Positions 2,326-26,121 of a DNA stretch of 64,000 bases are shown here, piece by piece. The stretch is from a virus. Its lineage: Duplodnaviria; Caudoviricetes. How positions within the stretch are numbered: position 1 is the first letter of the stretch; every line of letters begins with the position of its first letter. The position numbers and the translations under genes are program-made. Under the pieces are notes generated by a model. That model had not been told where the DNA came from, searched no databases, and saw only the letters and a program-made list of their open reading frames with translations. The stretch lies in IMG/VR virus record IMGVR_UViG_3300046539_000030, positions 7,070 to 71,069 of that record; one strand, given 5' to 3'.

Positions 2326-2598
2326 ATGCCAACGAAACAGATTGACGATAATAAGCGTCCCATCGTCAGCCGCTATTACGAAAATATCCGCGCAACCCGC
2401 ATTGTAAAGACGACACGTTCGCTTCATGCTAACAGCGCAGTCATCAACGCGACTAACCACATGCAGTTGAACCACTACGGCGCACGCCTGGTCGAAGTGT
2501 ATGACGAGCGTGACGGCAAGCCTCATGCGTCAATCGTGTTACATGCCAATGGCAACCTTGAAATCATCTTCAAGCGCGAAGTTAAGGAGGGCATGTGA
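2326..2598 (+). CDS. hypothetical protein
   Basis: 90 aa ORF with AGGAG RBS. Confidence 0.75.
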   Translation: MPTKQIDDNKRPIVSRYYENIRATRIVKTTRSLHANSAVINATNHMQLNHYGARLVEVYDERDGKPHASIVLHANGNLEIIFKREVKEGM

Positions 2599-2999
2599 TG
2601 AACAAGGTCAACCGATCCCAAGCTCTTATCAACTCTGGCAAGGCTCGCGCTGCAATTAGCGCGTTCTTCGCCAACAATCCTGAAGAACGTTACGCAGCTG
2701 AACAGGTTCATGCAAACTGCGTTCCGACCATGCATGACATTGGCTACGATCATCACCAAGTTCGCGGCATCCTTAATGCAATGGTCGGCAATGGTCAGCT
2801 TACCAAGGAAAAGGAAGGTCGTTCGGTTCTTTACAGCCTGATAGCGCCAGCTACCAAACCCGCGAAGCAGCCAAAGGCTCCGCGAAGTGTGGCCAACAAC
2901 TTGCCACCGAACGTTAAATTACAGTTCGTCAAAAGCACTGGCAATTTGCGCGTTCAGTTCAACGGCCTGGTCTTTGAAATAGGAGCAGTAGACGAATGA
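2595..2999 (+). CDS. hypothetical protein, possible winged-helix DNA-binding domain
   Basis: 134 aa; helix-helix-wing pattern (VRGILNAMVGNGQLTKEKEGRSVLYSL). Confidence 0.5.
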   Translation: MMNKVNRSQALINSGKARAAISAFFANNPEERYAAEQVHANCVPTMHDIGYDHHQVRGILNAMVGNGQLTKEKEGRSVLYSLIAPATKPAKQPKAPRSVANNLPPNVKLQFVKSTGNLRVQFNGLVFEIGAVDE

Positions 3000-3670
3000 A
3001 AGATTGGACAGCCCAGCAATTAAACGCGAAGCTGCCCGCCTTTAAGACCTTCCTGACCGCTCGCGGCGGGGAGGTTTTAGAACCCACAAGTGAATGGGAG
3101 GTTGTGCGGTTCAGAAGCGGCAGCAACACTTCCATTATTTACACGAACAAGAAGGGAATATTGAATTTTTATGGCGAAGATGCGAAAGCTGCCTTAGACG
3201 CCTACCGAACCAACGGTAGCTGGCGTGCCAATCTGCATGTCTTTAAGAACCGAACAAAGAATTCCTCGGTTGTATGCCGAACATTGCGCAAGCGTGACGG
3301 CAATAACTGTTTCTTTTGCCTCAAAGGTGTGAAGGCTGAAGAAGAGTCTGAAGAACACCTGTTGTCGCGCACGCACGGCGGAAGCGATCATATCGCTAAC
3401 AAAGTCCTGGCGCATAAAGCATGCAATTTGAACGCTAATCATTTGAGCGTAGCAGAAAAAATTCGTATTCATGTAGAAGCCCAACTAAAGAAAGCAAGGA
3501 CTGACTATGAAAACTCCCTTAAGTTCCGCGAATCCTTGCGCCAACAGCGAGGAATCGGAGAACATACTGATAGCGAAAGCACTAGCGATAGTGGGCCAGC
3601 GGTTACACAAGCCCGGGGCTTATTTGACTTGCCCGAATCTACTGGAGGAATACCTGATTCTAAAAATTAA
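2996..3670 (+). CDS. HNH endonuclease
   Basis: CFFC..EEHLLSRTHGGSDHIANKVLAHKACN HNH/Zn motif. Confidence 0.8.
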   Translation: MKDWTAQQLNAKLPAFKTFLTARGGEVLEPTSEWEVVRFRSGSNTSIIYTNKKGILNFYGEDAKAALDAYRTNGSWRANLHVFKNRTKNSSVVCRTLRKRDGNNCFFCLKGVKAEEESEEHLLSRTHGGSDHIANKVLAHKACNLNANHLSVAEKIRIHVEAQLKKARTDYENSLKFRESLRQQRGIGEHTDSESTSDSGPAVTQARGLFDLPESTGGIPDSKN

Positions 3671-3992
3671 TAACCGCGAGCATGAAGTTTTCGGGGTTAT
3701 CTGGCTCGACATGCGACATGGCGTTATTTATGATAGCGAACTATTCCGCGGTACGCTGAATTCTACCAGTGTGTATCCGCGTGAAGTGGTGAAGGAAGCT
3801 CTGTTTGCTAATGCGGCGGCGGTGATCTTTTACCACAACCATCCGAGCGGCGTGGTCGAGCCTAGCCCGGCAGACAAGACCTTGACAACCAAGCTGAAGC
3901 AGGCTTTGGATCTGGTTGACGTCAAGGTTGTTGACCATATAATTACTGCCGGCAATGCAACGTATTCTTTCTCGAAGAATGGACTGCTATGA
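3507..3992 (+). CDS. radC: RadC-like JAB/MPN domain protein
   Basis: EVFGVIWLD, GTLNSTSVYPREVVKEAL, HNHPSG..EPSPAD, DHII motifs. Confidence 0.9.
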   Translation: MKTPLSSANPCANSEESENILIAKALAIVGQRLHKPGAYLTCPNLLEEYLILKINNREHEVFGVIWLDMRHGVIYDSELFRGTLNSTSVYPREVVKEALFANAAAVIFYHNHPSGVVEPSPADKTLTTKLKQALDLVDVKVVDHIITAGNATYSFSKNGLL

Positions 3993-4585
3993 CTAATTAT
4001 CTGCAAATGCTGAGGAGTCTTGATTGTAAGGAAATGGCGCAGCATTCGTGCATCAACCACCATGTTGACGGCATGAACTATATCTGCTTATTGCGCACGG
4101 ATGAATTAACGATTAAGATTTATATGATGGGCCGGCCGGAAAATCCAAACAATGGTTTTCTGGTGAACCCGCATTCGCATCGTTATCCGTTTGATTCAAC
4201 TGTTTTGTGCGGAGAGCTCGAGCACATCCGGTTCCATAAAACCAGCACCACTTTCAAGGGCGTGAAAGTGTGGTCAGAATACCAGTACAGCCCGGAGACC
4301 CGCGAAATCGTGAACATGGGTGAAGCCCAGTTCTTTATGTCGTCTGTATATCATACCGAAGGTGGTTCGTATTTTGTTAAGTCAGATGAAATACACACCC
4401 TTCGGTTTAATGACGATAAGCCGGTCATAATTGGTTTAACACAGTTCGCAGACGAACGCGAACACTCTGAGTTGTACCTGCCCCGGGAGCAAAAAGGTTT
4501 TCTGCAACCCAACTCACGCTGTCCAACCGTTGAAGAGCTTGAAGAGCTCAAAGTTGTTGCTATCAAACGTATATTAGAGGCTTAA
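3989..4585 (+). CDS. cupin-fold protein (putative)
   Basis: HSHRYPFDSTVLCG and distal EIHTL His motifs. Confidence 0.5.
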   Translation: MTNYLQMLRSLDCKEMAQHSCINHHVDGMNYICLLRTDELTIKIYMMGRPENPNNGFLVNPHSHRYPFDSTVLCGELEHIRFHKTSTTFKGVKVWSEYQYSPETREIVNMGEAQFFMSSVYHTEGGSYFVKSDEIHTLRFNDDKPVIIGLTQFADEREHSELYLPREQKGFLQPNSRCPTVEELEELKVVAIKRILEA

Positions 4586-4587
4586 CC

Positions 4588-4788
4588 ATGATGGAAGAAA
4601 TCCTTACAGGACGTCGGCGGCTACGCATACACCGACGCATATTGCTTGACAATCTGCTGGTTGTCGAGGTTGAAGTTAAAATCACTGTGCCTAGTGCTAC
4701 AGGCGATCGCAGCTACACCGCATGGCGCGATATGCGCCCCGAAGATTGCACAGTTTGGGTGGAGGTGGATTCATGTCTGACAAATTGA
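4588..4788 (+). CDS. hypothetical protein (paralog of 5473..5703)
   Basis: Shared LTGR.R / LV.EVEV / WRD pattern. Confidence 0.65.
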   Translation: MMEEILTGRRRLRIHRRILLDNLLVVEVEVKITVPSATGDRSYTAWRDMRPEDCTVWVEVDSCLTN

Positions 4789-5483
4789 AAGAGACATATC
4801 GGGCAGAGTTCTTGAACCTTGCTCTGGAATGCGGAGCACGTCTAACCGGAAAGCCTGACGGTAGCGAACCAATTGAAGTGCAGTTTCCTATCCCGGCCTG
4901 GAGAGCGTTCGACAAAGCTACTGCGCATCTTGACCCATCACAAGTCTGCGAAGACGTTGCGGCCAAAAGCAATAACTCGCTTTTCAGGTCTGGTGCGAAG
5001 GTTTGCGCGGCTGAAATTCGCAAGGAAGCCAGCGAGGCAGCGCAGGAGCCGTTCCTTCCAGAATTGCCGAAGCCTGCGTTTATGTGCTCCACAGCAGTTC
5101 CAGAAGATACGCCAGCATTCACAGAAATTCAAATGCGCGAGTATGCAGGCAAATATGCGAAGGCATGGCGCGGAATCATGACATCTGCTGACGAAGCTGA
5201 GAAGCGACTTGCCGCACAGCCAGCACCGGCAAGGGATGCGCAACTGCGACTTGTTGCGATCATCAATTCGGCTACTAGCTTGGGCGAGCGTGCCGCATAC
5301 GGGCTTGCCGACTCAATTCTGAGTGCCCTGCAATCCCAGCCAGCACCGGAAGCCGGTAAGACTTTCGACCAGTGGGCCGACGACACCAAGTTTTTATGCG
5401 ACCCGCCGTTCCGTGCAATGCGGCAAGCATTCCGGGAAGTATGGGCTGAAGCTTTAAAACATGGGGGCGACAATGCAAAATGA
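4773..5483 (+). CDS. hypothetical modular protein
   Basis: ORF 4722..5483; GGAGG RBS precedes ATG 4773; QPAP linkers. Confidence 0.65.
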   Translation: MSDKLKETYRAEFLNLALECGARLTGKPDGSEPIEVQFPIPAWRAFDKATAHLDPSQVCEDVAAKSNNSLFRSGAKVCAAEIRKEASEAAQEPFLPELPKPAFMCSTAVPEDTPAFTEIQMREYAGKYAKAWRGIMTSADEAEKRLAAQPAPARDAQLRLVAIINSATSLGERAAYGLADSILSALQSQPAPEAGKTFDQWADDTKFLCDPPFRAMRQAFREVWAEALKHGGDNAK

Positions 5484-5703
5484 ATGGCTAACAGGTAGAA
5501 CCAGGCACGATCAGCGGTTCTGCGGCGTGTTGTTCAACAAGAAGTTGGTACTCGTCTTGCAGGTTGAAGTGACATGGGACGAAGGCCCTTCTGATTCGAA
5601 CGGTATGCCGGAATACCTGCCGGGCCGAGGCTGGCGCGATGCTACGGTCATTGATCTGCAACGTCTTAATGCCGCAGTTACAGTTTTGAAAGCTGTGAAA
5701 TGA
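5473..5703 (+). CDS. hypothetical protein (paralog of 4588..4788)
   Basis: LTGRTR..LVLQVEV..WRD. Confidence 0.65.
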   Translation: MQNEWLTGRTRHDQRFCGVLFNKKLVLVLQVEVTWDEGPSDSNGMPEYLPGRGWRDATVIDLQRLNAAVTVLKAVK

Positions 5704-5849
5704 CTAACGCGCAAATTCCCGCTCCCGCCGTTAAACTCTGTCAAAGTTGCTGGCGCAGACCTGCTGTGGCGCTCTTCAATGGTCGGCTTCGTTGTCAGGT
5801 GTGTTTAGACCATACGAAGGCCGCTGCAAGCAAGGCAAACAAGACGTAA
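5700..5849 (+). CDS. small zinc-finger protein (49 aa, not in ORF track)
   Basis: Manual translation MTNAQIPAPAVKLCQSCWRRPAVALFNGRLRCQVCLDHTKAAASKANKT*; two CxxC; ATGA overlap with the previous stop. Confidence 0.6.
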   Translation: MTNAQIPAPAVKLCQSCWRRPAVALFNGRLRCQVCLDHTKAAASKANKT

Positions 5850-5862
5850 AATATATTTACGC

Positions 5863-5898
5863 GCCCCCGTTGTGATGTTTTAACGGGGGCATTATAAT
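5863..5898 (+). promoter_or_regulatory. sigma70-like promoter TTGTGA-N17-TATAAT within a 9-bp inverted repeat
   Basis: -35 at 5870-5875, -10 at 5893-5898; GCCCCCGTT (5863-5871)/AACGGGGGC (5882-5890). Confidence 0.6.
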
Positions 5899-5938
5899 TA
5901 CCTTCCCCCAACGTTTGCACAGCGCCATGCCAACTATA

Positions 5939-6172
5939 ATGGATGACACGAATCCGGCGCAATCCGAGTTCGATAAAAAATATATCACAGCATGGGAAGT
6001 GATGCGTACCGTGGGTGTCACCCGCGCTGCATTGCTCTATGCTCGGCGCACTCATAAACTCCCCGACCCTATTACCCTCAACGACGGAACTTTATTTATC
6101 TGGTTGCGCGAAGATGTGCAGCCGTACCTTGACGCTTGGAAGATTGTTCTCGATACGCGCCGGGGTCACTGA
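5939..6172 (+). CDS. AlpA/excisionase-like HTH DNA-binding protein
   Basis: YITAWEVMRTVGVTRAALLY...LPDPI...IWLREDV pattern; start uncertain (5927 or 5939). Confidence 0.6.
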   Translation: MDDTNPAQSEFDKKYITAWEVMRTVGVTRAALLYARRTHKLPDPITLNDGTLFIWLREDVQPYLDAWKIVLDTRRGH

Positions 6173-8643
6173 TGGCAATTAATTATGATCGCATCCCAGA
6201 AGAATTGCGCTGGGATAGAAGTTGGTGCATCGCAGGTAAAGATGAAAACACAGGTCGGTATCGCGCACCATACGGATACGGGCGCAGAGGACTGTTTCAC
6301 GTTAGTCCGGTCAAACCGGAACAATGGTCAGATTTTGAAAGCATTGTAGAAATTGCTGCGGCTAATCCTCCATGCGGGATAGGTTACGTTTTAGCTGACA
6401 CAGACGCTTATTCCGTTATTGATCTGGATATTAAGGACGCAACTACTGAACCTGACCACACTAAATGGACATCTCAGGAGCAGATCGACCGCTACCATCG
6501 TATTATCACAGCGTTTGACACTTACACCGAGCGCAGCGCCAGCGGTCTGGGCTTCCATATCTGGGTGCGCGGCAAAATTGGTGACGGCCTTAAGCGCGAT
6601 GGCGTAGAAATCTATTCGCGTGAGCGGTTCATTGTCTGTACGGGTAACGTGTTCCTGGACAAACCTATTGAGGCGCGTCAAGACCTGCTAAATCTGCTTG
6701 CTGCGGAAATTAGCCAGGCTTCCCCTGCTTCACATGGTGCGTTTGAGCTCGTAGAGATCGAACCTACCGAATCTGACACCGCTATCTTCAGGCGTGCAGC
6801 AACCGCAGATAACGCGGAAAAGTTTATCGATCTATGTGACGGCAATTGGTCGGGCAAATATCCTTCGCAGTCAGAAGCTGACCTAGCATTGATGTCAATC
6901 TTTACTTTCTACAGCCCGTCGAACGAACAGTGCCGTCGCATGTTCCGCCTAACTGAGCTAGGTAAGCGGGCAAAAGCAACTAAGAACGATGTCGCTCTAA
7001 ACCGCATACTGACGGTTATTCGCGCAAGGCAAGCTAATGCAGAACTGGTCGACGCTGCTGCGGCTGCTGCTGCCAGTATGCTAGTTGCTAGCTTAAATGC
7101 ACCCCTAGCACCGCAGGCAAGCGCCCCCAGCACGCAAGCGCAAGCAAGCGCACCCTATACCATACCCGCACAAATAAACCCCCCAAAACCGCTGCAAACA
7201 AGCGTCCAATTCGAGCGCATCCCTCTGCCCGAGGAACTGGAAGGTTATGTACCGCCACCTCTGCCAGAAACAGAGACGCGTGAGATAATGCAGAAGACAG
7301 CTAGCATTGATTGGCCGCCAGGTATCTTGGGCCGGGTTGCGCGGTTCATTTACCACAACTCGCCGCGCCCTGTTCAAGAGGTGTCGATTGTCTCCGCGTT
7401 GGGCTTCGCTGCCGGAGTGTGTGGTAAAGCTTACTGCCTCCCGCAAAGTGGCTTGAACTTGTATGTCGTTTTGATTGCTAGGTCTGCAATCGGTAAAGAG
7501 GCAATGCATAGCGGTATATCCACAATTGTGAAACAAGTGGCTGACACTTGCTCACGTGTGACGCAGTTCATAGATTTTACGGACTATGCTTCGGGGCCAG
7601 CTCTGCTGAAAGCGGTCACTGCGAACCCAAGCTTCGTGAACGTATCTGGTGAGTGGGGGCGTAAGCTGCGCAGGTTATCAATGGAAGACGGACGTGACGG
7701 GCCTATGCAACAGTTGCGCACGGTGATGACTAATATGTACCAGAAATCCGGGCCGTCCTCGATTGTTGGTGGTCTTGGTTACAGCGATAAGGAAAAGAAC
7801 GTTGGGAGCGTGTCTGGCGCAGCGTACAGCATGATTGGCGAAAGTACGCCTGGCGGGTTTTATGATTCGCTTACCGACACCATGATGGAAGACGGGTTCC
7901 TTAGCCGCTTCACCATTATTGAATACACGGGCGAACGTCCAACAGCTAACCCAAACATTGTAGATACGCTTGATGAAGATTTAAAGGCGCATTTGGCAGC
8001 ACTGGCGGAAGCTGCTTTAAAGACGACATTAGGTTCCCCTGTATATGTCACGCAGAACCCCGAAGCTGAGGCGCTTCTGCAAGCTTTCGATCTGGAATGT
8101 GATACCAATATTCGTGCCGCAGGTGAAGATGAAAGCACCAGGCAGATGTGGAACCGTGCTCATTTAAAAGCGAGCCGCATCGCGGCACTGTTGGCTTCGT
8201 GTGACGACTTTGAAATACCAATCATTAACAAGGGGCATGCCGAGTGGGCTATTGCGGTTATCCGCAAGGACATTGCAATTATGCAACGGCGCATTTCTTC
8301 TGGTGATGTCGGTATTGGTGACAGCCCCCGCGAGAAGAAGATTCTTGCAACCCTCCAGTTATACTTGTCCAAGCCTGTACCTGAAAGCTATGGTGTTCCT
8401 GACAAGATGCGGGTAGATGGCATCGTGCCTCGTAAATATCTGCAAATCGTTACAAACAAAGCGACCGCATTCACCCAACACAAACTCGGTTCCAATGCTG
8501 CTCTGGATCTCACCATGAAGTCTCTGGCAGATAGCGGATATGTTTCAGAAGTGCCTAGAGATAAGATGGTTAGCGGCTACAGCTTCCATGGGAAGGCGTA
8601 TCGCATTATCAATCTCCCTCGCTTCCCTGGAGGTACAAAATAA
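6172..8643 (+). CDS. primase-polymerase (AEP) with C-terminal DUF3987-like ATPase/helicase region
   Basis: IPEEL..W, DLD, ERSASGLGFHIW, EIYSRERFIVCTG (PrimPol); SQSEADLAL helical domain; ARSAIGKE P-loop-like; DGFLSRF. Confidence 0.8.
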   Translation: MAINYDRIPEELRWDRSWCIAGKDENTGRYRAPYGYGRRGLFHVSPVKPEQWSDFESIVEIAAANPPCGIGYVLADTDAYSVIDLDIKDATTEPDHTKWTSQEQIDRYHRIITAFDTYTERSASGLGFHIWVRGKIGDGLKRDGVEIYSRERFIVCTGNVFLDKPIEARQDLLNLLAAEISQASPASHGAFELVEIEPTESDTAIFRRAATADNAEKFIDLCDGNWSGKYPSQSEADLALMSIFTFYSPSNEQCRRMFRLTELGKRAKATKNDVALNRILTVIRARQANAELVDAAAAAAASMLVASLNAPLAPQASAPSTQAQASAPYTIPAQINPPKPLQTSVQFERIPLPEELEGYVPPPLPETETREIMQKTASIDWPPGILGRVARFIYHNSPRPVQEVSIVSALGFAAGVCGKAYCLPQSGLNLYVVLIARSAIGKEAMHSGISTIVKQVADTCSRVTQFIDFTDYASGPALLKAVTANPSFVNVSGEWGRKLRRLSMEDGRDGPMQQLRTVMTNMYQKSGPSSIVGGLGYSDKEKNVGSVSGAAYSMIGESTPGGFYDSLTDTMMEDGFLSRFTIIEYTGERPTANPNIVDTLDEDLKAHLAALAEAALKTTLGSPVYVTQNPEAEALLQAFDLECDTNIRAAGEDESTRQMWNRAHLKASRIAALLASCDDFEIPIINKGHAEWAIAVIRKDIAIMQRRISSGDVGIGDSPREKKILATLQLYLSKPVPESYGVPDKMRVDGIVPRKYLQIVTNKATAFTQHKLGSNAALDLTMKSLADSGYVSEVPRDKMVSGYSFHGKAYRIINLPRFPGGTK
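7052..7205. other. GA/TC-free island B (inside primase CDS)
   Basis: 154 nt with no GA or TC; encodes the Ala/Pro/Gln inter-domain linker. Confidence 0.9.
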
Positions 8644-8709: not shown

Positions 8710-9261
8710 ATGACATTTGGACAAGATATTGATAAGTTCAACCGGATGTATAAGTTGCCGGTAGCCACACATCCAACCTTGCTGCAATTGGGGGTCCCTG
8801 CTTGGAACAGAATGGTTGCCTTTAGAAACATTTTGAGCGAGGAGCTGGATGAGCTCGACCCAATTTTAGGCAAGTTGTTAAGTATCCAGACGGGTGCGCT
8901 TTTCAACCCTGCCGATTTTAAACTGGAAGGTGAACCATATGTACCAACGACCGTGGACGTGCTCACGGACTTGGCAGACTTGCTTGGTGATATCCAGGTC
9001 TATTGCGCGAGTGAAATGGCGAAGTTCGGTCTGCCATTGGACGCGGTACTGACAATCATTATGCAGTCTAACTTGTCGAAAATGGGTGCAGATGGTAAGC
9101 CTATTTATGACGAGCGCGGCAAGTTGCAAAAGGGGCCGAATTACTGGAAGCCTGAGCCAAAGATTCGCGCAATGCTCACTGCCTTGCGTAGCGGTGAAGA
9201 AGCACCTGTACCAACCGGCCTGACGGGCATTTTCGACCCGCTGCCGTTTGTAGAAGAATGA
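8710..9261 (+). CDS. MazG-like/PRA-PH nucleotide pyrophosphohydrolase
   Basis: EELDEL, DLADLLGDI, SNLSKMGADGKPIYDERGKLQKGPNY. Confidence 0.8.
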   Translation: MTFGQDIDKFNRMYKLPVATHPTLLQLGVPAWNRMVAFRNILSEELDELDPILGKLLSIQTGALFNPADFKLEGEPYVPTTVDVLTDLADLLGDIQVYCASEMAKFGLPLDAVLTIIMQSNLSKMGADGKPIYDERGKLQKGPNYWKPEPKIRAMLTALRSGEEAPVPTGLTGIFDPLPFVEE

Positions 9262-9600
9262 CCCACGGCGTACCCCTTTCCGCCAACGGGTTGTAACTGA
9301 GTTTCTGGCATTGGTCTCAGTCTAAATAAAACCAGTGCCAACATTGGAGCGCCTGGATAACGCAGGTGTCGGCCTTAACCTTGCCCCCGACAGGGCATCC
9401 CTCGCCGTAGAGGGCCGGGTGTTCCAATGTTGGTAAGTAGGAGCAGAGTCTCGCGCTACAAGGACTGAGAAGGACGCTTAAGAGGAACTGAGTTAATCGC
9501 CATATGCTTTTGCTATGTCTCAAACGGAGTAACGAGAGGCGTTGATTACGCCAGAGGGTTACACCGGCTTGCCAACAATTTCTATTAACCAAGTCTGAAA
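9261..9600 (+). ncRNA. candidate large structured non-coding RNA
   Basis: ORF-free on +; nested helices with G-U pairs (9306-9315/9331-9340; 9339-9357/9415-9433; 9430-9438/9567-9575) and two pseudoknot complementarities. Confidence 0.55.
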
Positions 9601-12503: not shown

Positions 12504-13334
12504 ATGCCTATTCTTGACACGGTCACCCATACTAACGCTAAGACAGGCATTCGTGCTGTTATTGCTGGCGTCGAAAAGATGGGTAAAACCACTCTTGCAG
12601 CCAGCGCCCCGCGCCCTCTGCTCGTCCCCCTGGAAGCCGGCTTTGCCGGTGTCCAAGTCAGCAAAGTTCCAATGCTGGAACACTTTGACCACGTCGACAT
12701 GCTCATGGACGAAATCATTGCCGCTGCACAGCAAGGTCAGTTCCCCTACCAATCTATTATCTTCGACAGTGCAACTGCACTGGAACGCCTGATCCACCAA
12801 AAGATCATCGAAAAGGATCCTTCCTACGCTAAAGGGAATGGCAAAGCTGTAACAATGGAAAGCGCACTCGGCGGCTATGGAAAGGCGTACCAATACGCCA
12901 ACGAGGTCTTCGGTACGTTCCTCACCAAGTGCGATCAATTGGCCGTGTATGCGGGCATCAACATTATTTTAACCTGTCACGTATTCGCGGCTAAAATAGT
13001 CGACCCTACACACGGCGAATATGATTCGTGGGACATCCTGCTGCATTCCCCCAAGAACCAGAAGACTTATGGCAAGCGTGAAATGCTCACCCAATGGGCT
13101 GACGTTATCGGGTTCCTGTATGAGCCCATGTACGTTACCGAGGGTAAGAACATGAACAAAGGCATCAGCGCAAATCAAGGTCGCGTGCTTGCTGTGACCC
13201 GTACTCCCGGATATGTTGCGGGGAACCGCTTCGGTGTAGTCAACACCATCTCCCTCCCGAAGGACAAGGGCTGGAACTACCTCGCACACGAAATTTATCA
13301 AGCTAGCGGTTTCGATTGTTACAACCGGGATTGA
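12504..13334 (+). CDS. AAA_24/Sak4-like ATPase (recombination)
   Basis: GVEKMGKTT Walker A, IIFDSAT Walker B, GGYGKAY, WADVIGF, AGNRFG. Confidence 0.85.
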   Translation: MPILDTVTHTNAKTGIRAVIAGVEKMGKTTLAASAPRPLLVPLEAGFAGVQVSKVPMLEHFDHVDMLMDEIIAAAQQGQFPYQSIIFDSATALERLIHQKIIEKDPSYAKGNGKAVTMESALGGYGKAYQYANEVFGTFLTKCDQLAVYAGINIILTCHVFAAKIVDPTHGEYDSWDILLHSPKNQKTYGKREMLTQWADVIGFLYEPMYVTEGKNMNKGISANQGRVLAVTRTPGYVAGNRFGVVNTISLPKDKGWNYLAHEIYQASGFDCYNRD

Positions 13335-13336
13335 TC

Positions 13337-13471
13337 ATGGAACCAGTAGAACTGACACCGCAACAAATCATGCGACAAGTTACCCCGGCGATCCAACCTG
13401 TCCCGTTGTATCTTTCGTTTATAATTCACACCCTGTTTCGTGACGGCTTGCCGCACGGATGGGGTAAATAA
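13337..13471 (+). CDS. small hypothetical protein (44 aa, not in ORF track)
   Basis: Manual translation MEPVELTPQQIMRQVTPAIQPVPLYLSFIIHTLFRDGLPHGWGK*; fills the gap before the tRNA-like gene. Confidence 0.4.
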   Translation: MEPVELTPQQIMRQVTPAIQPVPLYLSFIIHTLFRDGLPHGWGK

Positions 13472-13477
13472 AGAATT

Positions 13478-13611
13478 GGACAGGTAGCTCAGTCGGTAGA
13501 GCGCCAGAGGTCTTGCAATAGCCTGAAGCCCGTTCTGACGGAGAGAAGCATTGCAAAAGATCACGCTGTATATGAAGAGGTCGCGGGTTCAAATCCCGCC
13601 CTGTCCACCCA
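13478..13611 (+). ncRNA. tRNA-like RNA 1 (anticodon arm replaced by a ~75 nt domain)
   Basis: Acceptor GGACAGG/CCTGTCC, D arm GCTC-AGTCGGTA-GAGC, AGGTC, T arm GCGGG-TTCAAAT-CCCGC, 3' ACCCA; no canonical anticodon arm. Confidence 0.75.
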
Positions 13612-13671
13612 ATTTTAAACCGCTTTGCTGACTGGCGGCTAACAGTCAGCAACTCCAATATTGGAACTAAA

Positions 13672-14484
13672 ATGGCAATTATTAATTTTGACGCACGTCA
13701 AGTCGCACCTGATGAAGGCCGCATGGGGCCTGTGCCAGCGGGCTGGTATCTGTTGGCAGCGAAAGAAACAAAGGTTGAGCCGACCTCGGATACTCTGGGC
13801 ACCAAGCTGACCGCTCAATTCACCATCCTGGAAGGCATGTACAAAGGCCGCACCGTGTACCATAACTTCAATATCAAGAACAACAGTGAAAAAGCGCAAG
13901 AAATCGGCCTGAAGCAACTGAGCGCCCTGTGCCACGCAACCCGCCTCTTGGTCGTGCAAGATACTTCCCAACTGCACAACGTCCCATTCAAAGCGAAGCT
14001 GAAGATTGTTGCAGCCGTGATGGATCCGCTCAACCCGCTAGTCGAGAAGTACGCAGCCAAGAACGAAATCACCGCGTTCAAAGACGCTGCTGATCCTTCG
14101 GCTGTGGATGCTGCTGGTTCTGGTATCAATCTGTCTGCACCTGCTCCAACCAGCGGCGCTGCTTTCACTCCGCCTCCTGTTGCCGCTGCTCCGGCTGCTG
14201 CCCCTGCTCAAGCTGCCGGTGGCTGGGCTCCCCCTGCTTCACAGCAACCGTGGCAGCAACCCGCCCCAAACGCTCAACCTGCCCCACAAGCTGTCCAGGT
14301 CCAGCCGACGACCATTGCTCCCTCACCGGCGCCTGCTGGTGCCCCTCCAGCCTGGGCTAATGCACCCGCTCAAATCCCGGCGCAAGCACCTGCTCAAGCT
14401 CCAGCGCAGTCTGCACCTCCCGTGACTGCTGCACCGGACGGTCAGGTTATGCCTCCTTGGATGCAAGACCAACCTGCTCAGTAA
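13672..14484 (+). CDS. DUF669 family ssDNA-binding-like protein with Pro/Ala/Gln tail
   Basis: PVPAGWY, FTILEGMYKGRTVYHNFNI, QLSALCHA; follows the AAA_24 gene. Confidence 0.75.
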   Translation: MAIINFDARQVAPDEGRMGPVPAGWYLLAAKETKVEPTSDTLGTKLTAQFTILEGMYKGRTVYHNFNIKNNSEKAQEIGLKQLSALCHATRLLVVQDTSQLHNVPFKAKLKIVAAVMDPLNPLVEKYAAKNEITAFKDAADPSAVDAAGSGINLSAPAPTSGAAFTPPPVAAAPAAAPAQAAGGWAPPASQQPWQQPAPNAQPAPQAVQVQPTTIAPSPAPAGAPPAWANAPAQIPAQAPAQAPAQSAPPVTAAPDGQVMPPWMQDQPAQ

Positions 14485-19026: not shown

Positions 19027-19096
19027 GGAACCGTAGCTCAGCGGAAAGAGTAGCGAGGCATCGCGGACGCAGGTTCGAATCCTGTCGGTTCCACCA
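19027..19096 (+). ncRNA. tRNA-like RNA 2 (truncated anticodon arm, CCA end)
   Basis: GGAACCG/CGGTTCC, A73, CCA; D arm; T arm GCAGG-TTCGAAT-CCTGT; central arm only GCGA-GGCA-TCGC. Confidence 0.8.
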
Positions 19097-19102
19097 ATTA
19101 AT

Positions 19103-19176
19103 GAGGCGTAAAGACCTAGAGGTCAGACGGAGTTCCATGGCCCGTCGGGGTGGTTTGAATCCATCACGCTTCGCCA
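19103..19176 (+). tRNA. atypical tRNA-like RNA 3 (possibly Trp-CCA-like)
   Basis: GAGGCGT/ACGCTTC, G73, CCA; D arm GACC-TAGA-GGTC; GACGG/CCGTC closing an 11 nt loop centred on CCA; 2 nt variable region; T loop TTTGAAT. Confidence 0.6.
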
Positions 19177-19224
19177 ATTAAAACCCGTACTCATAAGCTA
19201 GGCTTATGATCCTCGTGAGGTAAT

Positions 19225-23808: not shown

Positions 23809-23975
23809 AAATGCTTATACGTCAGGGGAAGTTTGGCCCTTTTTGGGCTTGCCCAAAGTCGTACAAAGGTAATGACCACGGGACAGTCAAAACTGATGGT
23901 CGTCTTGCAGAAAATATTTTTGACATAGAAGACGAAAAAGTCCTCGACCAGCTCTACGAACTTGACGGGTATTGA
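23784..23975 (+). CDS. small topoisomerase-type C4 zinc-finger protein
   Basis: CGKCKSEMLIRQGKFGPFWACP. Confidence 0.65.
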   Translation: MQCGKCKSEMLIRQGKFGPFWACPKSYKGNDHGTVKTDGRLAENIFDIEDEKVLDQLYELDGY

Positions 23976-24910
23976 CAATGTATCTGTTTCTCGCTGCTGT
24001 TTATACTAACTCGTACATGAAGACCCAGAACCGTTATGTCAAGTTGACAGACGTTGAGCAGGGTATCATGGACGCCGTGCCCAACATACTCGAATCATAC
24101 CACTATGTTAATTCTCAAAAATATGTTGACGTTATGCGTCAGCAAGGCGCAAAAGTATTCCTTGACTCTGGTGCTTTTTCTGCCCATAGCCTTGGTGTAT
24201 CTATTGATATTCGGGAGTATTGCAACTATATCATACGCAATCGTGATATACTACGGGTTGAAGATGGGAATGTTATGGCTTCTGTCCTTGACGGTATTGG
24301 CGACCCTCTAAAGACCTGGCAGAACCAGTTGTACATGGAGTCGCAAGGTGCGAAGCCCCTCCCCTGCTTTCACTTTGGCGAAGACCCGCGCTATCTCGAC
24401 TGGTACGTCGAGCGTTACGAATATATCACAATTGGTGGTCTGGTGGGACGTTCTGCCAAAGACCAAGAAATATGGCTAGATCGCATCTGGGAAAAGCACA
24501 TGCTGGACGGTAGTGGACGTGCGAAGCTCAAAGTACATGCATTCGGTATGACCGCACCATGGCTGATGAAGCGATATCCGTGGTACAGCGTTGACTCCTC
24601 TTCCTGGATTCAAGCTGCTGCGTTCGGTTCTATCTTTACAAGCGAGCATGGCCCATTGGCGGTCTCCGCACAGTCTCCCAGCAGGCACGACGCAGGCCGG
24701 CATTTGACCACACTAACCGACATCGAGCGAGAGTCCGTCGAGCGGATGCTTGCACAAAAAGGTTTTAATTTTGAGCGTCTTTCCACAGTGTACGAGTCCC
24801 GCGCATGTTATAATTGTTTAGGGTATGTAGAACTCAATGACCTGATAAACAAGCACCTGGATGAAGTCCAAGGTGTGTTAGACGTACAAAAAGCACAGCA
24901 ACTATTCTAG
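23972..24910 (+). CDS. dpdA: DNA 7-deazaguanine transglycosylase (TGT-like)
   Basis: FLDSGAFS, VLDGIG, PCFHFGE, IGGLVG, KVHAFG, PWYSVDSSSW; located in the que cluster. Confidence 0.88.
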   Translation: MTMYLFLAAVYTNSYMKTQNRYVKLTDVEQGIMDAVPNILESYHYVNSQKYVDVMRQQGAKVFLDSGAFSAHSLGVSIDIREYCNYIIRNRDILRVEDGNVMASVLDGIGDPLKTWQNQLYMESQGAKPLPCFHFGEDPRYLDWYVERYEYITIGGLVGRSAKDQEIWLDRIWEKHMLDGSGRAKLKVHAFGMTAPWLMKRYPWYSVDSSSWIQAAAFGSIFTSEHGPLAVSAQSPSRHDAGRHLTTLTDIERESVERMLAQKGFNFERLSTVYESRACYNCLGYVELNDLINKHLDEVQGVLDVQKAQQLF

Positions 24911-24915
24911 GAGTC

Positions 24916-26121
24916 ATGATGAAAGTAATAAACGACGAAGGTTCCCGCCCAATTAAGCTTTGGACGGATGACATCGAAGACGCTGCGCTCAAGCAGCTCA
25001 AGAATTTAGCACGCTTGCCGTTCATTGCCGGCAATGGTGTTGCCTGTATGCCGGACGTTCACGCGGGTATCGGTTCGACGGTCGGTACGGTCATTGCTAC
25101 GGAGAAGGCAATCATCCCTGCTGCCGTTGGTGTGGACATCGGTTGCGGTATGAACGCGGTTCGCTTGTCGCTTAAAGCTTCCGACCTGCCCGATTCGCTT
25201 TTGGTTATTCGCAATCAAATTGAGCGTGACGTGCCACTCGGTGCCGGTGGTCGACATCAGAATGACCTTGACGTTAGCTTAAAGTTCGCAAGACTTCCCC
25301 TGATGCAATATGCTGTACAGAAAACGCTCAGCGATGTTGCTGGTAGCTGGGAAAAGGCTGGAAAGAAAGCTGCTTGCCAGCTCGGCACGCTTGGTTCAGG
25401 CAACCATTTCATTGAACTGTGCATCGACGAGAACCAAGACGTGTGGGTTATGCTGCATTCTGGTTCGCGCGGTATTGGTAACATGATTGGCACCTACTTT
25501 ATCGAAAAAGCGAAGCGTCGCATGGAGCAGTATTTCATCACCTTGCCTGACGGTGACCTAGCGTACTTCCCGGAAAACACTGACGAGTTTAACGAGTATG
25601 TGGAAGCGGTCAGCTGGGCGCAGAACTACGCGCTGGAAAACCGCCGGTCGATGATGCAAGCTGTGCTATCTGCTTTGAGCCGGCATATTCCCGTTGAGTT
25701 TGCGGTCACCCATGAAGCTATCAACTGCCACCATAACTATGTTGAAAAAGAAAACCACTTCGGGCGCAATCTTTGGGTTACGCGAAAAGGCGCTATCCGC
25801 GCACGTGAGGGCGATCTGGGGATCATACCTGGATCAATGGGACAGCGTTCTTATATCGTACGTGGAAAAGGAAATGCAGAGTCGTATTGTTCATGCTCGC
25901 ATGGAGCTGGCCGGAAGATGTCACGATCGAAAGCGCGTAAAGTATTTACGATCGATGACCTTGCAAAGCAGACTGAAGGCGTGGAATGCCGCAAAGACGA
26001 CGCGGTCTTAGACGAGATCCCAGGCAGCTACAAGAACATCGACGAAGTCATGGCGAACCAGACCGACCTCGTTGAAGTTGTGCATATCCTGAAACAAGTG
26101 CTTTGCGTGAAGGGCGGTTAA
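24916..26121 (+). CDS. rtcB: RtcB RNA 3'-phosphate/5'-OH ligase
   Basis: MPDVHAG, VGVDIGCG, GTLGSGNHF, HSGSRG, HHNY, HGAGR, DEIPGSYK. Confidence 0.95.
   Translation: MMKVINDEGSRPIKLWTDDIEDAALKQLKNLARLPFIAGNGVACMPDVHAGIGSTVGTVIATEKAIIPAAVGVDIGCGMNAVRLSLKASDLPDSLLVIRNQIERDVPLGAGGRHQNDLDVSLKFARLPLMQYAVQKTLSDVAGSWEKAGKKAACQLGTLGSGNHFIELCIDENQDVWVMLHSGSRGIGNMIGTYFIEKAKRRMEQYFITLPDGDLAYFPENTDEFNEYVEAVSWAQNYALENRRSMMQAVLSALSRHIPVEFAVTHEAINCHHNYVEKENHFGRNLWVTRKGAIRAREGDLGIIPGSMGQRSYIVRGKGNAESYCSCSHGAGRKMSRSKARKVFTIDDLAKQTEGVECRKDDAVLDEIPGSYKNIDEVMANQTDLVEVVHILKQVLCVKGG

Follow-up and report, generated by a model that had tools for sequence, protein, structure and literature searches.

A conserved tRNA-shaped gene with its anticodon arm replaced in a phage of the class Caudoviricetes

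Introduction

A gene that has the acceptor, D and T arms of a tRNA, and a long unrelated domain where the anticodon arm should be, raises the question of what such a gene is: a tRNA in decay, a tRNA interrupted by an intron, a member of a described class of tRNA-like RNA, or a tRNA-shaped RNA that was never meant to decode. The element addressed here starts at position 13478 of a 64,000-nucleotide stretch of phage DNA, referred to throughout as the window, which corresponds to bases 7070-71069 of the 71,069-bp IMG/VR record IMGVR_UViG_3300046539_000030 (completeness estimate 86%). A preliminary description of the window had noticed the element and read it as a tRNA-mimic scaffold presenting a functional RNA domain, or else as a decoy for defences that target tRNA. 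We find a tRNA shell far above chance expectation, which recurs in related phages with its stems kept by compensatory change and with an abnormal anticodon arm in each copy, and we weigh what such a gene may do.

Results

The tRNA shell of the element and its recurrence in related phages

Direct reading of the element on the + strand gives a complete tRNA body and agrees with the perfect acceptor, D and T arms of the preliminary description. The acceptor stem forms seven of seven pairs between GGACAGG (13478-13484) and CCTGTCC (13600-13606); U8-A9, the D arm GCTC-AGTCGGTA-GAGC (13487-13502) and G26 (13503) fill positions 13485-13503, with A14, G15, G18, G19 and A21 all present in the D arm. 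The 3' half holds the variable loop AGGTC (13578-13582, with G46 and C48, by direct reading and alignment), the T arm GCGGG-TTCAAAT-CCCGC (13583-13599) and, past the acceptor 3' strand, the discriminator A73 (13607) followed by CCC (the whole 3' end being 13600-13610), hence CCA is not encoded. The full set of tertiary-contact bases of a tRNA is present, by direct reading and alignment, yet 74 nt lie between G26 and the variable loop, against 17 in an anticodon arm.

A strict scan for tRNA shells, demanding full pairing of the acceptor (7/7), T (5/5) and D (4/4) stems, a TTCRA T loop and GG in the D loop, found two in the 71-kb genome, the element and a shell at 19027-19092, where 30 shuffled genomes gave 0.03 on average, and a looser scan added a third at 19103-19172; the tRNA shell of the element is far above chance. 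Folding points the same way, as the whole element gives z = -2.18 whilst the arm folded alone (-16.9 kcal/mol) gives z = +0.47, with 128 of 200 shuffles as good, so that together with the scan it is the shell, and not the long helix, that is statistically remarkable.

A DNA similarity search with 13300-13800 against 50,697 phage records returned no match, an exact-pattern scan with the full D arm and the start of the insert matched nothing, and 21 IMG/VR relatives collected through the DUF669 protein (30-51% identity) had no tRNA-like element within 2.5 kb. A pattern scan with the D arm and the TAT..AAGAKGTC block gave the contig L027 plus chance matches, and one with the 3' block and T arm gave only L027 and an unrelated tRNA 3' remnant. 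Homologues were reached by going from the DUF669 protein to syntenic contigs and by degenerate DNA patterns, within a clade of related ~60-72 kb phages carrying dpdA/queCDE/folE (7-deazaguanine DNA). Five were found, which with the element make a family of six A-type members: L023:9226-9393 lies in the element's own slot, after the same small open reading frame (ORF) and before a Tad3 gene; L024:5520-5643 lies upstream of DUF7173; L027:3648-3805 (A1) and L027:3892-4019 (A2) both lie in a tRNA cluster upstream of queE; and L270:15520-15630 holds the same cluster position, with a degenerate acceptor stem (two mismatches). The neighbouring DUF669 proteins, among those compared, share 47-66% identity.

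Across the alignment, 97.9% of the cells at 16 shell pairs are standard pairs, and nine of these pairs (all seven of the acceptor and the two middle pairs of the T stem) have changed on both sides; none of 500 shuffles paired as well, and slid controls reached 32-52%. All six aligned homologues have the same D arm, C27, variable loop and T loop, and CCA is encoded in none of the A-type members. A decaying tRNA gene with a neutral insertion would fit the accessory tRNA content of these slots, which hold normal tRNAs in some relatives and nothing in others, the two acceptor mismatches of the L270 copy, and an arm that is not unusually stable and is flanked by a direct repeat, AGAGGTC (13506-13512 and 13576-13582). 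The repeat occurs in this member only, its second copy being the end of a conserved block plus the variable loop, and it may be a trace of the duplication or insertion event from which the arm arose. Against neutral decay stand the covarying stems themselves, as the acceptor, D and T stems are perfect in five homologues by way of compensatory changes, and in every copy, as in all three tRNA-like genes of the phage, only the anticodon arm is damaged, which leaves a pseudogene very improbable. The preliminary description would have been overturned by relatives holding a normal tRNA with a recent neutral insertion; they hold instead the same shell, equally abnormal arms and compensated stems. In silico, the family is thus a conserved, non-decoding tRNA mimic with a shell under selection and a fast-evolving arm.

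No single excision restores an anticodon arm and the classes tested do not accommodate the element

Whilst the other canonical features of a tRNA are in place, the element has no canonical anticodon arm (5-bp stem, 7-nt loop, U33, purine 37). We enumerated every single prefix/suffix split of the insert with variable loops of 4-13 nt, scoring as success a stem of at least 4 pairs with U33, and found no solution in the element, L023, L024 or L270, with only 4/5 stems in the L027 copies; the earlier claim that simple excision cannot rebuild the anticodon stem therefore holds under full enumeration. A script for the bulge-helix-bulge motif (3-nt bulge/4 bp/3-nt bulge, flanks of at least 2 bp) found 0 in the element and 2-9 in tRNAs from a metagenome scan that carry inserts at the usual intron position. 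Known group I introns are ~200 nt or more in length, and the insert of the element is far shorter. 

ARAGORN reported neither tRNA nor tmRNA in the window, and Rfam at gathering thresholds reported only the tRNA at 19027-19093 and not the element. In a permissive Rfam scan of 13380-13720 (E<=10) there was no match to a tRNA, to YrlA (RF02553), to a group I intron (RF00028, a candidate thereby rejected) or to a ribozyme; the scan aligned only the T arm of the element, as an 18-nt tmRNA match of 13.8 bits. The Rfam tRNA model (RF00005) does score L027:3892-4016 and L024:5520-5640 at 42-43 bits, though only with the arm as an insertion.

A genuine tRNA whose unconventional intron is removed by an unknown nuclease, with the ends joined by the RtcB that this phage encodes 11 kb downstream, would have parallels in the unexplained introns of Lak megaphage tRNAs (PMC6784885), in the L027-A1 insert, which sits within a canonical 5-bp anticodon stem, and in many insert-bearing tRNA-likes of the metagenome scan, which give perfect anticodon arms on excision. 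The absence of any working single excision in four members, of a bulge-helix-bulge motif and of a group I match to an insert already too short for known group I introns all oppose it, as does the lack of RtcB at the equivalent slot of L024's phage, and we consider it the least probable of the accounts weighed here. The Lak 'enigmatic introns' (PMC6784885) resemble the element as inserts of no known intron class in phage tRNA genes, but their removal leaves a typed tRNA with an anticodon, and no excision does so here.

Two other classes had been set aside in the preliminary description, tmRNA and the permuted YrlA, and both stay excluded. The element resembles tmRNA (RF00023) in that the acceptor and T arm are kept and a long helix replaces the anticodon arm. 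However, G3:U70, pseudoknots and a tag reading frame characterise tmRNA, which lacks a D stem; the element has a complete D arm, pairs A3 with U70 and holds no reading frame, and its sole tmRNA match is that of the T arm. YrlA (RF02553; PMC4201824; 10.1101/312249) is closer, with an L-shaped tRNA-like body, the D/T elbow bases, a long helix at the anticodon position, no decoding role and a genomic link to RtcB, and some YrlA-type RNAs are substrates of RNase P and the CCA-adding enzyme (PMC4201824; 10.1101/312249). Yet YrlA is circularly permuted, with its acceptor stem closed by a loop and its ends in the long helix, carries the motif GNCGAAN0-1G and lies beside Ro60, whereas the element is unpermuted, with an open acceptor end and a closed arm, and has no such motif, Ro60 gene or model match. 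The YrlA model gives only a weak 33.7 bits in L027 (threshold 69), aligning just the T arm, acceptor strands and D arm of two neighbouring genes, and among the other homologues the motif occurs only in the arm of L027-A2.

Other tRNA-like genes of this phage and its relatives

Two further tRNA-like genes lie at window positions 19027-19096 and 19103-19176, 10 nt apart and both with CCA encoded. The first (19027-19092 without its CCA end) has a 4-bp stem and a 4-nt loop for an anticodon arm and scores 49.8 bits with the Rfam tRNA model; the second (19103-19172) has G3:U70, G73, a 4-nt D loop and an 11-nt loop containing CCA, and at its position L273 has a tRNA-Trp(CCA) with a canonical loop and G73. 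None of the three tRNA-like genes of the phage has a normal anticodon loop. Stub-armed tRNA-likes also occur in relatives (L027:3817-3884, L024:15367-15444), as does an odd-looped one (L271:9792-9868). The slot upstream of queE holds ordinary tRNAs in other cases: L027 has Leu and Pro, and by reading of the anticodon loops L273 has Thr and Trp and L274 has Asp and Met. There are no tRNAs in that slot in L275-L277. Judged on these sequence comparisons, the element is a real, selectively maintained gene and one of three non-decoding tRNA mimics in this phage.

The L027 cluster runs in the order A1, stub, A2, Leu, Pro, and its three tRNA-likes follow one another without an intervening ORF, their acceptor stems almost the same and their arms all different, an arrangement which fits separate RNA products sharing one handle and goes against pure mRNA punctuation. 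Both this phage and that of L027 carry an RtcB gene, which is absent from four more distant relatives that lack tRNA-likes. Strict co-occurrence with RtcB was rejected, as L024's phage has both A-type and stub-armed (B-type) RNAs with YAcAr at the equivalent slot.

The replaced arm keeps its layout and loses its sequence

In the minimum-energy fold, the arm of the element opens with a base helix whose 5' strand CAG (13505-13507), preceded by C27 and followed by a one-nucleotide bulge (A), pairs with CTG (13566-13568). Above it stands a long irregular hairpin (13509-13562, from direct reading and the minimum-energy fold), in which GGTCTTGCAAT (13509-13519) pairs with ATTGCAA-AA-GATC (13550-13562), and which also holds a purine-rich internal loop (CUGAAG / AGAGAA) and the apical hairpin CCGT-TCTG-ACGG (13530-13541). 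A three-nucleotide bulge, ACG, then leads into the 3' strand of the base helix (the two together 13563-13568, minimum-energy fold), and comparison with homologues marks TATATGAAG (13569-13577), between arm and variable loop, as a conserved single-stranded block. The long helix and apical hairpin of the preliminary description are thus present, with the hairpin displaced by ~1 nt from where it had been placed.

Measured from G26 through the variable loop, the region is 80 nt long in the element and 115, 71, 104, 74 and 56 nt long in its five relatives, and the arm sequences are mutually unrelated but for two exceptions; even L023, the closest relative at the element's own locus, has an unrelated 94-nt arm. 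The first exception is an arm type common to L023 and L027-A1 (AAUAGGC..AUGCUUGAG and AGCUGAGUAACUAG), found in two phages and two genomic slots, whose closing helix covaries (GGAUAC/GUAUCC versus AGAUGU/ACAUCU), and which makes a payload role possible in general. The second is the 9-nt single-stranded block before the variable loop, which reads UAUAUGAAG in both the element and L024, although their arms are wholly different, UAUAUAAAG (DNA letters TATATAAAG) in L027-A2 and UAU-UAAAG (TAT-TAAAG) in L023. What recurs in the minimum-energy folds is the layout, namely a 3-bp base helix at C27, a bulge in which one nucleotide faces about three, and then the long irregular hairpin. The base helix is CAG/CUG in the element, L027-A2 and (by reading) L023, and AAC/GUU in L024, a compensatory change; L027-A2 repeats the bulge of one nucleotide opposite three (G opposite GUA), whilst L027-A1 differs in having a canonical 5-bp stem, CCACG/UGUGG, around its insert. 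Purine-rich internal loops occur in all arms of the family.

Two ideas about the arm were tried and dropped. A reading frame or tmRNA-like tag shared with relatives was not seen by inspection, and the AUG inside UAUAUGAAG is not kept in L023; a bait for TGT/DpdA, suggested by CUGUA in the conserved 3' block, fell because L024 and L027-A1 have UUUAU there.

A natural tRNA scaffold, in which the shell would serve processing and stability and the arm would be the active part (protein-binding or antisense, matched to the host), draws on the arm type kept in two phages with a covarying closing helix, on the L027 paralogues that join one acceptor stem to three different arms, and on the constant layout with its purine-rich internal loops. 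The element itself fits it poorly. Its arm has no homologue, the L023 arm at the same locus being unrelated, and its stability is at the level of shuffles; the arm matches no Rfam family, its complements in the phage genome are only 10-11-mers, at chance level, and an exact-pattern scan with the arm found no other copy in IMG/VR. Stub-armed paralogues, free of any payload, are also conserved. We regard a scaffold with payload as unlikely, and the earlier proposal that the arm displays a functional RNA domain finds no support in this member, given a sequence and length (57-104 nt) that vary between homologues, the fold at shuffle level, and an arm without Rfam match, complement or copy. Selection acts here on the shell and on the 9-nt single-stranded block.

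Genomic setting

All genes around the element lie on the + strand, in the order DNA ligase, Sak4-like ATPase, small ORF (ending at 13471), element, DUF669/SSB-like gene, then Cas4-type exonuclease, helicase, the two further tRNA-like genes, queE, queC, PTPS and GTP cyclohydrolase I, and finally a 312-aa ORF (23972-24910) with no Pfam family match and RtcB (24916-26121), ~11 kb downstream of the element. The 312-aa ORF was labelled DpdA by an earlier reader, a label that we carry as presumptive. The element begins 6 nt past the stop codon of the small ORF, whose C-terminus GLPxGWGK is also kept in L023, and a search for a sigma-70-like promoter or intrinsic terminator flanking the element found none. 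We propose that the element would be co-transcribed with the replication genes.

The same facts suit a cis-acting processing signal, a 't-element' or tRNA punctuation at which RNase P and 3' processing would cut an early polycistronic transcript, leaving an excised RNA with no role and an arm free to drift. The position between same-strand ORFs, the variable length and sequence of the arm and the presence of a gene start 20-60 nt downstream of the A-type member in the window, L023 and L024 all agree with this. Tandem tRNA-likes with no ORF between them (A1, stub and A2 in L027; the two further genes in the window) do not, nor do relatives that have the same DUF669 leader and no tRNA-like element, and the conservation of a full D arm, tertiary bases and the 9-nt UAUAUGAAG block goes beyond what an RNase P site needs; a pure processing signal is therefore quite unlikely in our judgement.

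The family occupies variable accessory slots, and two of its members adjoin a Tad3 gene (PF25185). The Tad3 gene (Pfam PF25185) is found at L023:9420-9938 and L271:9291-9782, in the variable slot between the Sak4-like and DUF669 genes and beside a tRNA-like element. The RtcB slot (window 24916-26121; L280:10001-10390; L272:20126-20554; L273:20068-20484) is likewise an accessory hot spot, with YAcAr in L024's phage and NADAR in L272 and L273. The cultured relatives, at 40-44% protein identity, are the Pseudomonas phages MiCath, Iggy and PaMx25 and the Acinetobacter phage HD01; the region of MiCath, the sole cultured relative read there, is syntenic and has no tRNA slot, so that none emerged as a laboratory model.

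Several non-coding features were noted around these genes. The DUF669 leader (window 13615-13652) consists of TTAAACCGC and a 10-bp hairpin (13625-13652) with the loop GCGGCTAA, and in L023 the hairpin is kept through compensatory changes with the loop GCGGATAA. The sequence TTAAACCGCTT also occurs at window 1327 (+), at window 30764 (-) and at genome base 2987 (-, upstream of the window), and is probably a phage promoter or operator motif. The queE leader (window 19178-19224) is conserved in L024, L027, L270, L271, L273 and L274 as AACCCGTACTCA, a variable hairpin and GATCCTCGTGAGGT, the last spanning the ribosome-binding site; it has no Rfam match and is a candidate regulatory RNA for the deazaguanine operon. 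A conserved structured RNA adjoins the tRNA-like cluster (L027:4016-4140, L024:15450-15600, L270:15700-15890), with a long closing stem, CCAACATT...AATGTTGG, and a core, GCGGYTAGTCACCGT...ACGACGACCG. A similar closing stem, with repeated ACTGAG / CTCAGT, is present in the non-coding region 9261-9600 of the window (compare 9340-9440), and GCTGAGTAAC, a motif linked to the structured RNA, is also found in the arms of L023 and L027-A1.

Insert-bearing tRNA-like genes beside Ro60 in metagenomes

Among the results of the metagenome pattern scan were many tRNA-like genes whose anticodon stem carries, in its 5' strand, an insert of 45-60 nt. One large family has a conserved insert after position 27-29 that starts (A)AAAC, contains GCCGA(A/U/C)G, a motif present in many of the inserts and near to the published Ro60 motif GNCGAAN0-1G, and ends GGGTTAYC; its excision yields perfect anticodon arms with many different anticodons, and the YrlA model gives only 32-37 bits for the family. 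Arrays of such genes lie directly beside Ro60, and some beside RtcB, in L088, L086, L096, L066, L046, L037, L084 and L103, L088 having the array at 2513-3045, Ro60 (TROVE and vWA_Ro60) at 3192-4826 and RtcB at 5073-6254. The insert family was also seen in L054 and L065, and tblastn with the L088 Ro60 reached 13 further fetched loci, most with such inserts. Besides that of this phage, RtcB was found in four loci (L126, L069, L088, L252), with a partial match in L155. The family may represent Y RNAs in tRNA register, or tRNAs that dock Ro60. A second insert type, a hairpin followed by ACAGCAAYC, occurs at L047:3482, L064:10558, L089:5246, L146:1170, L074 and L266:8325 and matches nothing it was compared with.

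The element could by analogy be a Y RNA in normal tRNA topology for a host Ro60 (Rsr), its arm docking Ro60 and its body binding an effector, alongside the phage RtcB. The metagenome tRNA-likes with 45-60 nt inserts that adjoin Ro60 and some RtcB genes, the long helix of YrlA at the anticodon position together with its link to rtcBA operons (PMC4201824; 10.1101/312249), and the RtcB of this phage all lean that way, and the arm opens GGUC and has GCCUGAAG, one insertion from GNCGAAG. Against it, neither this phage nor L027's has TROVE or vWA_Ro60, the strict motif is missing from the element and from four of the five other homologues, and there is no YrlA match at E<=10. We hold a host-Ro60 Y RNA to be distinctly improbable.

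Discussion

We tentatively favour, at somewhat less than an even chance, the reading that the element is a stable, non-decoding tRNA mimic which would work through its tRNA body. After transcription with the replication genes, RNase P and 3' trimming would release the RNA, the CCA-adding enzyme would append CCA, and the product would fold into a normal L-shaped tRNA body. A base helix, an irregular hairpin and the single-stranded UAUAUGAAG stand in the anticodon position, which makes codon reading impossible. The body could then occupy or tether readers of tRNA shape, such as host tRNA-directed nucleases or toxins and repair or quality-control factors, whilst offering no anticodon loop for cleavage, and the arm, evolving fast, would serve as an extension or secondary handle. 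Both tRNA-directed immunity and phage counter-measures that involve tRNA are established (PMC10264068, PMC11555353), and the metagenome Ro60 loci and YrlA offer a precedent for a tRNA body and a long helix next to RtcB.

Several points weigh against such a mimic. A decoy would protect poorly against catalytic nucleases, to which the entire tRNA pool of the host is exposed. The link to RtcB is loose, as L024's phage has YAcAr in its place; neither the 71-kb record (86% complete) nor L027's phage has TROVE or vWA_Ro60, and the arm of the element has no GNCGAAN0-1G. The family is small (n=6), so covariation at the level of the arm comes from few changes. There is no specific tRNA that the element can be said to mimic, as two exact-pattern scans of 185,579 species genomes found no parent tRNA and no isotype stood out as nearest neighbour among 1,352 tRNAs of the fetched loci, with Thr, Gly, Lys, Asn and Arg all at a similar level. 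A search of sequencing runs for the element listed a single DNA run, a rhizosphere metagenome that is probably its source, and no RNA run.

RNAs that share part of this design are known from other systems. RNAC and RNAD of phage T4 have tRNA-like features. Like the element, they are taken as phage stable RNAs of unknown role made alongside tRNAs (PMC3014915), but they lie in a cluster of working tRNAs, whereas by ARAGORN the element's phage has no working tRNA gene. The T4 RNAs are a precedent for products other than tRNAs in phage tRNA clusters. The element also departs from the t-element pattern in keeping the whole tRNA body and in forming tandem RNA-only clusters in relatives. Plant mitochondrial t-elements and mascRNA-type signals are tRNA-shaped, cut by RNase P/Z and non-decoding, and usually have only the acceptor and T parts. 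In the engineered tRNA scaffold, said to have been devised by Ponchon and Dardel in 2007, the anticodon stem-loop is reportedly swapped for a foreign hairpin and the shell provides processing and stability. The element would be its natural counterpart, differing in origin and in that its insert may not be the active part.

A broader proposal, which we put forward as speculative and unlikely, is that anticodon-less tRNA mimics form an undescribed phage class serving counter-defence or as a cofactor of RNA repair. On this view they are related to Y RNAs but do not depend on Ro60 and have normal tRNA topology; they would bind host readers of tRNA shape (tRNA nucleases, acceptor-end toxins, sensors) while being uncleavable, and their fast-changing arms would record an arms race with those proteins.

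Should the element prove to be a mere processing signal, or a relic that is tolerated, there is nothing unusual about it. Genes of this kind escape tRNA finders, as ARAGORN shows in this window, and phage genomes may therefore hold many tRNA-shaped RNAs that are not tRNAs. Host immunity that attacks tRNA includes PrrC, RloC, PARIS, retron effectors, Schlafen and Cas12a3, and the phage answers to it are repair enzymes and variant tRNAs. If the favoured reading is true, a non-decoding tRNA body in a phage that encodes RtcB would be a new RNA player in this conflict over tRNA, and the idea embodied in Y RNAs, a tRNA body joined to a long helix, would extend beyond Ro60.

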